Below are positions 41,208 to 46,458 of a DNA stretch of 64,000 nt, piece after piece (positions within the stretch are counted from its first letter, which is position 1; each line of letters opens with the position of its first letter). The DNA is from Haliangiales bacterium. Its GTDB lineage: Bacteria; Myxococcota_A; Polyangia; Haliangiales; Haliangiaceae. A program made the position numbers and the translations under genes. The DNA is taken from assembly GCA_041916575.1 (NCBI GenBank), contig JAYRZI010000002.1:149117-213116 (forward strand), given 5' to 3'. The notes below the pieces were generated by a model that saw only the letters and a program-made list of their open reading frames with translations, searched no databases and had not been told where the DNA came from.

Positions 41208-42416
41208 TCAGAACGCTGCGCCGAGCTGCAGGCTCACCGCGAGCTTGTCGTTCAGATCGGCGCCAAAGCCCAGGAGCCCCGCTGGGCGTCGCGACCAGGT
41301 GGCCACCCTGCTGCCCTGGAGCTGCACGCGCCAGCGTTGCCACAGGCCGCCGGTAAGGCCGACGCTGGTGTCGAGCACGTGGTCGAGGCGGTGCTCCACG
41401 TCGGGGTTGAGGTACGCGGCCAGCACGTACGGCTCGAGGTAGAAGGCGCCACGCGTCGCGCCGCCTAGCTTGTAGCCGGCGATCGCCTGACTGGCGAAGA
41501 AGGTGGTGGGGTCGTCGGCGCTGGCGGCGCCCAGGTGGCTCTGGCCTGCGAGCACGTCGATCCAGGCGCGTAGCCCCAGGCCTCGCTCGCCGAGGTCGAC
41601 CTCTGCGTCGAGGCCAGCGGCCCAGTACCGGCCGACGTCGCTGACGTAGTTGACCTCGCGGTTCGATACCACCGCGCCGATCCGAGCGACCCGGCCAAGC
41701 GAGACCTCGCCGCGTAGCGCCGCCGCGAGGCCGGCGCCTTCGGACAGCGGCCGCGCCGCGGCGTCGCCGGTGGTGGCAGCGGACTGGCTGACCGTGGCCA
41801 GCACGGCCGGTCCGCGCTTCTTGCGCTGCCAGCGCAGCTCGACGCCTTCTCGTCGGCCGGTGAGCGACAGGCCGTCATCGAGCACGTCGGCCACGGCGCC
41901 GCGGTCGATCGAGGGCAGGATCCAGGCCGAGGCGCGCTCGATGGCAGAGACCGGGCCCTTGAAGCGGCCGATCGACAGCTCGAGTCCGCGCGGGCCATCG
42001 AGCTCGATCAGCGCGTCGCGCAGGCTGACCTTGCCAGAGGCCTCGAGCACCACCTTGGCGCGGAGCTTCTTCTTCCATCGGTAGCGCGCGCCCAGTCGTA
42101 CGCTGGCGAGCTCGAGCTGACCGGTCCACGGAACCTCGTCCGTATCGAAGGCGGTGGCGCGCGCGAACACCCGTCCGCCGAACGTCAGCTCGCCGCTGCC
42201 GGCGCTCGCGGACCGGCCGGATCGCGGAGCGGACTCGCTCGCGTCGGGCCCGCTCGTAGTAGGCGCGAGCGCCGCCTCCGGCTCACTCGCCGCCTCACTC
42301 GGTGCCAGCACCGCGGGCTCCACGTCATCGAGGTCCTCGGCTTGCGCGCGAGCCTCGGCGCTGGCGGCGAGCGCACCCATGGCCGCGAAGAGCGACAGGT
42401 ACCTGTGCACCTTCAT
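41208..42416 (-). CDS. outer-membrane beta-barrel protein
   Basis: Signal peptide MKVHRYLSLFAAMGALAASAEA; alternating amphipathic strands; C-terminal ...LQLGAAF; ATGA overlap with the upstream gene. Confidence 0.6.
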   Translation of the reverse strand: MKVHRYLSLFAAMGALAASAEARAQAEDLDDVEPAVLAPSEAASEPEAALAPTTSGPDASESAPRSGRSASAGSGELTFGGRVFARATAFDTDEVPWTGQLELASVRLGARYRWKKKLRAKVVLEASGKVSLRDALIELDGPRGLELSIGRFKGPVSAIERASAWILPSIDRGAVADVLDDGLSLTGRREGVELRWQRKKRGPAVLATVSQSAATTGDAAARPLSEGAGLAAALRGEVSLGRVARIGAVVSNREVNYVSDVGRYWAAGLDAEVDLGERGLGLRAWIDVLAGQSHLGAASADDPTTFFASQAIAGYKLGGATRGAFYLEPYVLAAYLNPDVEHRLDHVLDTSVGLTGGLWQRWRVQLQGSRVATWSRRPAGLLGFGADLNDKLAVSLQLGAAF

Positions 42417-44401
42417 TGCTGGAACGGCCGCGCTTGCTTGATGTAGAGGCGCGGCGTCTCGCCGGGGAGTCCTTCGAGCTTCCATTCCACGTCCATCGCA
42501 TACCAAGGCTTGCCGGCGCCATAGGAAGCGCGGAACGCTTCGTGGATGCGCTCGAGCGCGGTCGCCAGCTCGAAGAGCTGGGTGCTGGTGAGCACCGAGG
42601 TTCCGGGTGCCACCAGGTTCGAGCGCTTGAGGTAGACCACGGGCTGGCCTTGCTGTTGCCAGAACAGCAAGATCTGATCGGTCGTCACCCCGGCCGGCGG
42701 CAGCACTACGGACTCTCCGCCGAGCTGCGCGTTGATGTAGAACGCGGGCGACAGGCCGGTGTCGTCGTAGGGGTTGTTGGTGAGCGCGACGCCGTTGGCC
42801 TCCTCATCTGGGAAGGCGCGGTGACAGAGCAGCGCCATGCCCACCGCCAGGTGCTCGATGCCGCGGTAGCTGCGCTCCTCGAAGGCCTTGTAGAACCAGA
42901 CGCTCGCCCACACCGCGCGGATCGCGTCTTCGATGGGGTCGGTCGGGTCGTTGGGATCTCCGCTCTTCGACGTGTAGAGCCCAGCGCCGGTGAAGCCATC
43001 GAGGTCTTCGGCGTTGGTGCTGGAGCGAAACCGCATCCGCACGCCGGGGTAGTCGGCGGCGAGCTTGTCCTTGACGAGCTGCACGAACGCGGGATCCAAC
43101 GGCGCGGCTTGCATCGCCGCGCGCAGCGTGGCGAGGCGCGCGTCGCGGGTAGCGGCGCTGTTTTGGAACTCCGGATCGGCGAGCATGGCGCGCACTTGAT
43201 CGTCGAAGCCGTGTTGCTCCATGAACTGCTGGTAGTAGTAAAGCGGGATCGCGAAGCCCTTGGGGATGAGCACGCCGCCGACGAAGGTGAGCGCGCCGAA
43301 ATGCGCTGCCTTGCCGCCGAAGGCCCGAGTGGCGGTCTTGACCCTGTCACGGAGGGGTAGCTGCGCGTCGCGGGACACCAGGTCGACGTCGTTGCGCAGG
43401 TCGGTGGCAGACAGATCCATCACCGGCACTGCGATGGCCTTGGGGCGGTGGGCTTCCCACCAGGCATCGGCCTCGGCCTTGGACACCTCGATCACCGAGT
43501 GCTCGAACAGCCCGACCGTGAGCTTGACCCACTTGCCCTCGAGGGCGCGCAGCTCTTCGTTCTCGAAAGCGCCGCGCAGCGCCATGTTGGGCGTGCCGCG
43601 GTTGGCCGACAGCACGTTGACGTGCGAGAGCGGGGTTTGGAACTCGGAGGTCACGATGCCCATGGCCACCGCGATGTCGTTGGGCACGTGATCGAGCACC
43701 ACGATGTCGCGGAACGAGAGGTAGCTGCCGCCGCCGCTGAGGCTCTCGGCGGTGTAGAAGCGGAGCTGGCCGTAGCTCTCGGCCACGTTCAGCGGCTGGT
43801 AGGTGATGCCCTGGTACAGCTCGTCCGTGGTGACGACCTTGACCGAGCTCGGCAGCGTGGCAGCGAGCTCTTCCACGGCCTCCGAGGTCGGGTGGAACGC
43901 CAGCTTGCCGCCGATGAACGAATGGCTGGCGATGGCGCGGTACGCGGTGGTGATCATCTGCGCGTCGGCGGTGTCATACGGGGAGATCTCATAGACCCAG
44001 CGATCGGGCTGCTCGTAATGGGTGAGCGCGCCCAGGATGAAGCGCCGGCTGGGCGAGAAGTACTCGCTGGTGTTGAACTCCGCGAGCATCGGCACCACCG
44101 GCAGGCCGTTGCCCGAGAGGTGCTTGGAGGCGAATTGGTAGTGGGTCTGGAAGGTGACGCTGTTCTGGAAGTGCAGCCGGTCGCCATCGAAGCGGTCGAC
44201 GATGGTCTTGACCGAGCGCGCGCCGGGGATGGTGGCGTCGAGGGGGCGAGAGGCCAGGGCGCGGAAATCCTCGGCGCAGCCCAGACTTGCCGTGGACACC
44301 GTGTCCTCGGTGAGGCCTGCGCAGGTAGGCTCGCTGTCGCCACAGGAAGCGACGGCGAGCCACAAGCACGCCACCGATGCGAGCTTGGCCACGCCGCTCA
44401 T
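42413..44401 (-). CDS. lipoprotein with PPDK_N (PEP/pyruvate-binding, ATP-grasp-like) domain
   Basis: Lipobox LAVASCGD; GGKAAHFGAL...IPKGFAIP and RFRSSTNAEDLDGFTGAGLYTS match the PEP-synthase/PPDK N-domain signature (VRSSAxxEDLxxxSFAGQ). Confidence 0.65.
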   Translation of the reverse strand: MSGVAKLASVACLWLAVASCGDSEPTCAGLTEDTVSTASLGCAEDFRALASRPLDATIPGARSVKTIVDRFDGDRLHFQNSVTFQTHYQFASKHLSGNGLPVVPMLAEFNTSEYFSPSRRFILGALTHYEQPDRWVYEISPYDTADAQMITTAYRAIASHSFIGGKLAFHPTSEAVEELAATLPSSVKVVTTDELYQGITYQPLNVAESYGQLRFYTAESLSGGGSYLSFRDIVVLDHVPNDIAVAMGIVTSEFQTPLSHVNVLSANRGTPNMALRGAFENEELRALEGKWVKLTVGLFEHSVIEVSKAEADAWWEAHRPKAIAVPVMDLSATDLRNDVDLVSRDAQLPLRDRVKTATRAFGGKAAHFGALTFVGGVLIPKGFAIPLYYYQQFMEQHGFDDQVRAMLADPEFQNSAATRDARLATLRAAMQAAPLDPAFVQLVKDKLAADYPGVRMRFRSSTNAEDLDGFTGAGLYTSKSGDPNDPTDPIEDAIRAVWASVWFYKAFEERSYRGIEHLAVGMALLCHRAFPDEEANGVALTNNPYDDTGLSPAFYINAQLGGESVVLPPAGVTTDQILLFWQQQGQPVVYLKRSNLVAPGTSVLTSTQLFELATALERIHEAFRASYGAGKPWYAMDVEWKLEGLPGETPRLYIKQARPFQQ

Positions 44402-45763: not shown

Positions 45764-46458
45764 TGGATCATCCTCTCGATCGCGCGGACATCGCCGAGCA
45801 GGCGATTTTGCCGGAGCTCGGGGTGTAGCAGGGCGGTCGCGAACGTGTATTTGCTCATCGAGCGCTCGTGCAGGCGGCAGGTGTGGATCCGCCGCATGAT
45901 GGGGGTCCGCACGCAAAACGGCGATTGCTTGACCTCGATGACGGCCACCTTGCCGAACGACAGCTCGGCGCCGCCCGGCTCGTGCGCGCGCAGTCCCACA
46001 TCCACAGTGACGCGCTCGGCGCTGCCCAAGCTGACCAAGCTCAGTCGAGCGAAGTTCACTCGCAGCGTCGGCTGCAGCGTGTCGATGGCAAGCGCAGCAT
46101 GATGCCGCAGAAATGCCAGCTCGGGTTCACCGAGCACCTCGCTACCGAACTCCAGTGCCAGGCGCTGCTTGTCGGTGAGGACCTCGTTTCGCTTGGTCTT
46201 GACCTCGAGGAACGTCAGGTGGCGATCCGGATAGTGGCGGATCCGGATCTTCTGCCTGAGCCGGCGGCCGCGTCGGTGATCGTGGAAGCAGCGGCGGTCG
46301 GGTGTGTCGAAGTACAGGCTATGATAGATGGCAAAGTGGCCTTGGCCGGCGGGGAGCGCTGCGTAGTCTTCGCACAAGGGCTCCAGAATCTCGTGAAGTA
46401 GCTCACTGCTGCAGGTGTATTTGCTGTCGATTCGCCGCTGTAGCTCTCGCTCGCGCAT
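45760..46458 (-). CDS. VTC-domain (CYTH-like, polyphosphate-polymerase-domain) protein
   Basis: RIDSKY...HSLYFDT...FLEVKTK typical of the bacterial VTC domain; classic pairing with DUF4956; ATG at 46458. Confidence 0.65.
   Translation of the reverse strand: MRERELQRRIDSKYTCSSELLHEILEPLCEDYAALPAGQGHFAIYHSLYFDTPDRRCFHDHRRGRRLRQKIRIRHYPDRHLTFLEVKTKRNEVLTDKQRLALEFGSEVLGEPELAFLRHHAALAIDTLQPTLRVNFARLSLVSLGSAERVTVDVGLRAHEPGGAELSFGKVAVIEVKQSPFCVRTPIMRRIHTCRLHERSMSKYTFATALLHPELRQNRLLGDVRAIERMIQ

Follow-up and report, generated by a model that had tools for sequence, protein, structure and literature searches.

The five-gene operon at positions 41208 to 46542 of the window analyzed here (a stretch of 64,000 nucleotides of contig JAYRZI010000002.1, from the Haliangiales bacterium assembly GCA_041916575.1) raises the question of why a gene for a cytoplasmic VTC-type enzyme and that of its DUF4956 membrane partner are followed by genes encoding two lipoproteins and an outer-membrane barrel. 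The original prediction, made from the sequence of the window, regarded the five genes (G1 to G5 in order of transcription) as one unit encoding a trans-envelope machine for phospho-transfer or polymer export. Comparison with 99 related loci shows that the locus consists of two modules, module A comprising VTC (G1), DUF4956 (G2), the lipoprotein G3 and the porin G5, the last of which is replaced by a DUF2490 barrel elsewhere, and module B comprising the lipoprotein dikinase G4 and two further lipoproteins, U2 and U1. Module B usually occurs alone and module A, in related contigs, mostly stands beside exported CotH kinases; what the locus suggests is that phosphoryl chemistry reaches the cell envelope by a route not yet described. 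The window has a G+C content of about 70% and its closest relatives are assemblies of Kofleriaceae and other Myxococcota.

Regarding gene structure, all five open reading frames lie on the minus strand and every junction in the window sequence reads exactly as first described: the VTC stop codon (TGA, 45762-45760) and the DUF4956 start codon (GTG, 45763-45761) share a GTGA at 45763-45760, DUF4956 (stop TAA, 45091-45089) and G3 (start ATG, 45102) overlap by 14 bp (45102-45089), the G3/G4 and G4/G5 junctions are ATGA overlaps at 44401-44398 and 42416-42413, respectively, and 185 bp separate the end of the operon from the ATG (41022) of a major vault protein (MVP) homologue. Independent public gene calls for the contig give identical proteins for genes 2 to 5. 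For gene 1 the product on record has 260 residues and begins at the ATG at 46542, the 232-residue product beginning at 46458 is not on record, and the RFAPA motif, encoded upstream of 46458, is conserved at the protein level in relatives; the 5′ end of the VTC gene is therefore most likely at 46542 and not at 46458, where it had been placed. The unit also reaches beyond the operon as first delimited, with the two conserved divergent lipoprotein genes U1 and U2.

Tests against Pfam hidden Markov models (HMMs) supported the VTC, DUF4956 and PPDK_N assignments with which the original prediction began. G1 (45760-46542, minus strand; 260 residues), a putative triphosphate-tunnel enzyme of the Vtc4-like polyphosphate polymerase type, has no signal peptide and matches Pfam VTC (PF09359) at 3.2e-24, with 86.2 bits against a cut-off of 23 and over profile positions 2-235 of 235. 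A PDB search with the single G1 sequence returned no match and a profile was required; the profile of 26 G1 relatives matched the yeast Vtc4 catalytic domain (3g3q/8i6v) at 7.8e-7. Lys200, Arg264/Arg266 and Lys281 of Vtc4, the reported catalytic residues (Hothorn et al. 2009), align with Lys13 (at least 90% conserved) and the invariant Arg72/Arg74 and Lys87 of G1, in a numbering that counts from the Met at 46458. The invariant Glu175-x-Lys177 and Ser202-Lys203-Tyr204 of G1 resemble the Vtc4 Glu426 and Ser457/Lys458 pattern, the Vtc4 alignment having ended at profile position 163. G1 is a candidate polyphosphate polymerase, which would use ATP.

G2 (45089-45763, minus strand), the inner-membrane partner of the VTC protein, matches Pfam DUF4956 at 5.2e-46 and has, by hydropathy, four to five hydrophobic segments and a C-terminal soluble domain of about 80 residues. 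DUF4956 was found to be MgtC-like, with a C-terminal ACT-like domain, in a published structural comparison (PMC12345266); here the MgtC model was matched at 1.4e-4 by two of nine DUF4956 relatives, the window copy not matching. Of the 44 DUF4956-anchored contigs with enough flank, 43 have VTC immediately before DUF4956 on its upstream side, and the two genes are obligate neighbors, in agreement with the partnership originally assumed. The pair resembles the yeast and protist VTC complex in that the Pfam family of G1 is common to both, the equivalents of Vtc4 Lys200, Arg264/Arg266 and Lys281 are kept and a soluble polymerase is tied to a membrane protein. It differs from that complex in lacking an SPX domain, a fused DUF202 membrane domain (Pfam detected only the VTC domain in G1) and a Vtc1-like subunit, DUF4956 being present instead, and whereas the yeast complex serves the vacuole, the target here would be the periplasm or cell surface.

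G4 (42413-44401, minus strand; 662 residues) begins with the lipobox VASC and has a first part of about 200 residues for which no Pfam family or fold could be assigned, followed by a predicted phosphoryl-carrier (swiveling) domain at about residues 200-330 (43412-43804) and a C-terminal ATP-grasp nucleotide-binding domain (PPDK_N, residues 361-661, 42419-43321; Pfam 6.5e-26). The AlphaFold2 model has a predicted local distance difference test score (pLDDT) of 89.4. The motif FQTPLSHVNVLSxNRGTPNM, including His260 (codon 43622-43624), and the ATP/Mg-binding residues Lys364, Arg459, Asp637, Glu639, Gln656 and Arg658 are invariant in 31 G4 relatives. The lipobox Cys20 is kept in at least 90% of the same relatives and Cys27 and Cys42 are conserved, which argues that G4 is an exported lipoprotein acting outside the cytoplasm. 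Over the carrier region Pfam GWD1_pHisD is matched by 17 of the 31 relatives (best 8e-4, 19.4 bits), all under the 27-bit cut-off, and the window copy is not listed among them. As read from its sequence, G4 thus appears to be a complete dikinase with the domain order of plant alpha-glucan, water dikinase (GWD), which goes beyond the PPDK_N lipoprotein first described.

The similarity to the plastid enzymes GWD and phosphoglucan, water dikinase (PWD) lies in the phosphohistidine domain directly before a C-terminal PPDK_N domain and in the catalytic-type His, invariant in G4; in potato GWD, His992 is essential and the polymer surface is phosphorylated with ATP (PMC12892837). Unlike GWD and PWD, G4 has no CBM45 or CBM20 starch-binding domain and is about half the size of GWD, and while GWD resides in the ATP-containing plastid stroma, G4 has a lipoprotein export signal and conserved Cys pairs. 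From phosphoenolpyruvate (PEP) synthase, pyruvate phosphate dikinase and rifampin phosphotransferase it differs in the reversed order, with the carrier domain before the ATP-grasp domain, in the absence of a PEP/pyruvate TIM-barrel or rifampin-binding domain and in being a lipoprotein. The family is widespread in Myxococcota, more than 100 clusters (90% identity) sharing at least 56% identity with G4. Dikinase homologues of 52-54% identity, without U2, were also found in loci L019, L021, L023 and L024, from metagenome-assembled genomes (MAGs) titled uncultured Enterobacteriaceae or Enterobacterales; this taxonomy looks mislabeled, since the rest of the dikinase family comes from Myxococcota.

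The remaining two genes of the operon encode a DUF3108-like lipoprotein and a porin. G3 (44398-45102, minus strand; lipobox LSAC, the Cys21 of which is invariant among relatives) matches DUF3108_like at 3.4e-5 over its C-terminal 40 residues only, with 24.2 bits against a cut-off of 27; 12 of 15 G3 relatives match the same family weakly, and the PDB entries 3fzx and 4fvs match G3 at E-values of about 0.03-0.05. G5 (41208-42416, minus strand) has a signal peptide and forms, in its AlphaFold2 model, a barrel of 16 strands with pLDDT mostly 83-96 and one block of about 20 residues near 60. Foldseek ranks 1-3 for this model were OprP/OprO structures (2o4v, 7e-13; 4rjw, 3e-12), with a sequence identity of about 12-13%. 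Pfam Porin_O_P was matched by 20 of 28 members of the G5 family (best 3.6e-7; the copy in locus L052 reached 24.7 bits against a cut-off of 20.9), and the window copy gave no match at E ≤ 0.1. By its modeled structure G5 is a 16-stranded porin like OprP and OprO, the phosphate- and diphosphate-selective porins of Pseudomonas, and thus of the putatively phosphate/polyphosphate-selective type. Its conserved Arg/Lys residues number 18, and strand prediction places 15 of these in the barrel; they are candidate counterparts of the arginine ladder and lysine cluster that line the OprP pore. G5 differs from the Pseudomonas proteins in a long acidic N-terminal linker and in being encoded beside a polymerase and not beside a Pst uptake system. 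This linker, past the signal peptide at residues 25-73, comprises about 50 Ala/Pro/Ser-rich residues with 10 Asp/Glu and 2 Arg/Lys, and is predicted to be disordered (pLDDT about 30). The two lipoproteins and the outer-membrane barrel of the original prediction are therefore borne out by the lipoboxes of G3 and G4 and by the signal peptide and barrel model of G5.

Neighborhoods were compared across the 99 related loci, of which the G4-anchored set comprises 32 species-representative genome loci and five further loci, and the DUF4956-anchored set 62 metagenome contigs. The complete order, with the divergent U1-U2 followed by VTC-DUF4956-G3-G4-G5, is present in five Kofleriaceae/Myxococcales genomes (L006-L009, L011), and the complete arrangement was also found in the metagenome contigs L039 and L044/L045. 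Elsewhere the same genes recur in rearranged orders: L041 has G5-G4-U1 | VTC-DUF4956-G3-U2, L034 has U2-G4-G5-CotH and, after a gap, VTC-DUF4956-G3, with DUF4956 and VTC only 21% and 26-28% identical to the window copies, and L004/L064 have VTC-DUF4956-DUF2490 and, about 5 kb away, U2-G4. At least four gene orders thus bring the dikinase and VTC/DUF4956 together (the canonical Kofleriaceae order, L041, L004/L064 and L034). In a further variant, L010 (a Kofleriaceae MAG), a divergent DUF4956 at 5695-8111 is preceded by a thymidylate-kinase-like gene in place of VTC and followed by G3, G5 and G4. The product of this gene, of 585 residues, begins with a P-loop domain of the thymidylate-kinase type (Pfam 2e-20) and ends in a long tail that looks repetitive; another kind of nucleotide/phosphate enzyme thus takes the VTC position. 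In L004 the gene that comes immediately after the dikinase, at 10055-11104, encodes an SMP-30/gluconolactonase-like beta-propeller (Pfam SGL 1.3e-13) and no porin. What is directly established comprises gene structure and synteny, the identities of the domains, the conservation of catalytic residues and the export signals.

Within these neighborhoods the genes separate into the two modules. G3 accompanies VTC-DUF4956 although the dikinase is absent in L052, L061, L062 and L072, G3 and G5 together do so without G4 in L052, L061 and L062, and among the neighborhoods compared neither G3 nor G5 ever occurs with stand-alone dikinase genes. The slot for an outer-membrane protein after VTC-DUF4956 is filled either by an OprP/OprO-like G5 or by the unrelated DUF2490 barrel; one common family for the two was ruled out (hhalign probability 0.3%). 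DUF4956-DUF2490 adjacency is also on record in Bacteroides thetaiotaomicron (PMC10434189).

Regarding module B, U2 is the most constant partner of the dikinase, with a homologue in 22 of 36 dikinase loci and, in 13, a distance of at most 250 bp from the dikinase gene. In the window U2 (47447-48376, plus strand) encodes a Cys-rich lipoprotein of 309 residues with eight invariant Cys and an invariant His212, for which no fold or family assignment was found. U1 (46643-47437, plus strand, transcribed divergently from the operon; a product of 264 residues is on record) encodes a DUF1554-like lipoprotein, its Pfam DUF1554 match of 4e-6 falling just under the cut-off, and adjoins the dikinase in L001, L003, L006-L012, L034, L039, L041 and L044. 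The proposal of a single five-gene unit therefore holds in part: genomes and contigs of Kofleriaceae conserve the five genes together, but the unit is a composite of two modules, and the dikinase mostly occurs without VTC/DUF4956 in the flanks available.

Exported kinases of the CotH type form the other main company of module A and were found among related loci such as L010, L034 and L061; an HMM built from related loci detected none in the 64-kb window. Sixteen DUF4956-anchored contigs extend for 3 kb or more to either side; CotH is present in nine of them, the dikinase in three and either of the two in 12, and an outer-membrane barrel (G5 or DUF2490) in six. A crude heuristic assigns most of the CotH neighbors an N-terminus of the signal-peptide or lipobox type. 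DUF4956 of L061/L062 is directly followed by the gene for a CotH lipoprotein (Pfam 1.6e-35), in an operon that holds G5- and G3-like genes and no dikinase. The two CotH genes of L061 (2391-3380 and 7247-8581) flank the G5-like/G3-like/VTC/DUF4956 operon, the downstream one encoding the lipoprotein.

An association of VTC and DUF4956 with CotH has been described in Gram-positive bacteria, in which the VTC-DUF4956-CotH triad is an accessory cluster of Pel loci (10.1101/768473; PMC12345266). In Streptococcus intermedius (SIR_1592-1594) deletion of DUF4956 or CotH lowers Pel-dependent aggregation, and the same study reports no such synteny outside Pel loci (PMC12345266); in the NELoc-2 triad of Clostridium perfringens the membrane gene is annotated as tubulin/FtsZ-like (PMC2879425). 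The window shares with these clusters a VTC-DUF4956 pair beside an exported phosphotransferase. It differs from them in having a GWD-type dikinase lipoprotein and no CotH, and in adding an outer-membrane porin and a DUF3108-like lipoprotein, which is impossible in Gram-positives; Pel genes were not seen among the neighbors scanned. No publication was found that connects VTC or DUF4956 with porins, with DUF2490, with DUF3108-like lipoproteins or with an exported dikinase. The locus is a Gram-negative version of this described but uncharacterized cluster and, judged by the literature found, a new one. The original view that the combination is undescribed thus stands for the combination as a whole and not for the VTC-DUF4956 pair, already known beside a secreted CotH.

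The reading we favor, to which we assign a probability of about 0.45, is that a Vtc4-like polymerase feeds an envelope polyphosphate route with extracytoplasmic phosphotransferases as its clients. By analogy with the yeast VTC complex, G1 would build polyphosphate at the inner membrane from the gamma-phosphate of ATP, and DUF4956 (G2, distantly MgtC-like) would receive the chain or pass it into or across that membrane. Phosphate anions in the periplasm, and their passage over the outer membrane, would fall to G3 and the presumably arginine-lined OprP/OprO-type G5, and G4, with U1 and U2, would phosphorylate an extracytoplasmic acceptor, either a surface polymer or a U1/U2 lipoprotein. Module A would in this way supply phosphoanhydride or phosphate chemistry outside the cytoplasm to module B and, in related loci, to CotH. 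Synthesis and translocation of polyphosphate, which way it flows in the porin, what the acceptor is and any donor link between the modules are inferred. A more specific version is doubtful: VTC and DUF4956 would expel polyphosphate from the cytoplasm, and this polymer, or a nucleotide regenerated from it, would be the source of phosphoryl groups and energy for enzymes of the ATP-poor periplasm or the surface (G4 here and CotH elsewhere), with the OprO/P-like or DUF2490 barrel as the outer-membrane conduit. If true, it would add to PPK1 and PPK2 a third way for bacteria to make polyphosphate and explain in general what drives phosphorylation outside the cytoplasm. Of the trans-envelope machine originally proposed, the envelope character is reinforced by the OprP/OprO-like G5 and by DUF2490 in the same slot elsewhere, while polymer export and phospho-transfer are likewise inferred.

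Several points weigh against this envelope route. OprP and OprO are known as uptake porins, both types of client, ATP-grasp and CotH, are nucleotide-dependent folds, and no ATP-grasp or CotH-fold enzyme is known to use polyphosphate. The channel of yeast VTC belongs to DUF202, a family unrelated to DUF4956, and MgtC, the nearest named relative of DUF4956, is a regulator and not a channel. Of the 24 species-level dikinase loci flanked on either side by 1.5 kb or more, 18 have no VTC/DUF4956 in the available flanks, and the 3.4-Mb contig Ga0315336_1000002 (L003, L064) carries two dikinase paralogues, only one of which is linked. Close relatives moreover make up many of the supporting loci and several loci are near-duplicates, so that locus counts overstate the number of independent events. 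The preprint of the S. intermedius study finally suggests that polyphosphate of the Gram-positive cluster may stay cytoplasmic, other VTC subunits being absent. As to the two paralogues of Ga0315336_1000002, these lie about 400 kb apart, one at 5.6 kb from VTC-DUF4956-DUF2490 and the other beside genes for an extracytoplasmic function (ECF) sigma factor and anti-sigma factor and U1/U2-like genes.

The separate lives of the two modules would be expected if the operon were a composite without mechanistic coupling, in which the dikinase module was inserted between G3 and G5 in Kofleriaceae and is co-expressed, for example under a common envelope or nutrient signal, with genes acting on different substrates. 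The core VTC-DUF4956-G3-G5 is intact in L052 with neither dikinase nor CotH in the 8 kb downstream, the majority of the dikinase loci just counted have no VTC/DUF4956 nearby, U2 and not a module A gene is the most constant neighbor of the dikinase, and G3 and G5 are never found beside it when it stands alone. Against such an origin, the linkage recurs in several orders and with divergent VTC/DUF4956 subfamilies (L004/L064, L034, L041), and CotH, a second and unrelated class of exported phosphotransferase, stands with module A in nine of the 16 well-flanked contigs; chance insertion fits poorly with a linkage that recurs and with the attraction of CotH to module A, and we regard the uncoupled composite as rather unlikely. 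A further idea is that VTC and DUF4956 form a cytoplasmic regulatory pair, in which VTC makes or hydrolyzes a tri- or polyphosphate signal and the MgtC-like DUF4956 regulates ATP or phosphate homeostasis or a neighboring secretion or biosynthesis step, with no translocation and the envelope genes as regulated targets. The weak MgtC similarity and the ACT-like domain of DUF4956 (PMC12345266), and the possibly cytoplasmic polyphosphate of the Gram-positive cluster, agree with this idea. It is nevertheless improbable, since the presence after VTC-DUF4956 of an outer-membrane barrel from one of two unrelated families, together with exported enzymes, argues for an extracytoplasmic role of the product and not for a purely internal signal.

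The OprP/OprO matches of G5, taken with the role of these proteins as porins for uptake under phosphate starvation, would also suit a system of phosphate acquisition and storage, in which phosphate, pyrophosphate or polyphosphate enters through G5, is bound or processed by the periplasmic lipoproteins and is polymerized by VTC-DUF4956 into cytoplasmic polyphosphate stores, much as yeast VTC serves phosphate homeostasis. An OmpR/PhoB-class two-component pair following the four-gene core of L052 points the same way, but it scores far under the PhoB/PhoR cut-offs and equally well for MtrA/BaeS. As PstSCAB, PhoU and phosphatase genes were not seen among the neighbors scanned, and as acquisition and storage would leave an exported ATP-grasp dikinase and an exported CotH without a role, this explanation is very unlikely. 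No rival explains equally well why two unrelated families of barrel and two unrelated families of exported phosphotransferase recur around VTC-DUF4956, and an envelope route fed by a Vtc4-like polymerase is thus preferred. The L052 pair itself (5397-7675), directly after the core, consists of a response regulator of the OmpR class and a sensor kinase with HAMP and HisKA domains; PhoB/PhoR are among the best matches, but the scores do not support a PhoB/PhoR identity.

Bacterial polyphosphate is classically a matter of cytoplasmic PPK1/PPK2 chemistry. Where a Vtc4-like polymerase stands with a membrane partner, outer-membrane barrels and exported phosphotransferases, this combination suggests that polyphosphate biology has a branch dedicated to the envelope. 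It bears on the role of the widespread bacterial VTC/DUF4956 genes and on the phosphoryl donor of exported kinases such as CotH. G4 merits attention in its own right as a predicted complete His-carrier/ATP-grasp dikinase with a conserved lipoprotein signal, the family of which would act in a place where no ATP is expected. The value lies more in the cross-lineage pattern than in the single operon, and the seven genes of the locus form a compact set open to testing.

Regarding regulation, the 100-bp intergenic region between VTC and U1 contains a block of 52 bp (46571-46622) which, in an alignment of eight loci, is the only strongly conserved non-coding stretch (…TCTTACGAAAACG.CAC…GAT.C…CGTCAC…) and is possibly an operator or an unusual promoter. 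A sigma-54 reading was rejected, the -24 GG being present in two of the eight loci only and the -12 TGC lying one base too close. The regulatory scan found no sigma-70-like promoter, six terminator-like sites were all on the plus strand and none exceeded the shuffled expectation, and Rfam had no match across 36-52 kb of the window. Genes for ECF sigma factors were found beside stand-alone dikinases in L001 (7262-7771), L003 (6856-7882, with a zf-HC2 anti-sigma factor) and L004 (4286-4906), and these neighbors suggest that the dikinase module is under regulation of the envelope-stress type.

Downstream of the operon, the MVP homologue (38515-41022, minus strand; 835 residues) is of the type of the eukaryotic major vault protein (MVP_shoulder 2.4e-23, Vault_3 1.2e-8). 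It was considered as an operon member and rejected: none of the 99 related loci has an MVP gene, not even the 11 in which the sequence continues for at least 1.9 kb past G5, and the adjacency therefore looks incidental. The other neighbors in the window are likewise unrelated to the operon and encode an acyltransferase, an M23 peptidase, RtcB, a sigma-54 activator and a FeeM-like N-acyl amino acid synthase. The gene for the latter (50754-51485, plus strand; Pfam 6.3e-11) lies in a region with a local G+C content of 0.62, compared with about 0.70.

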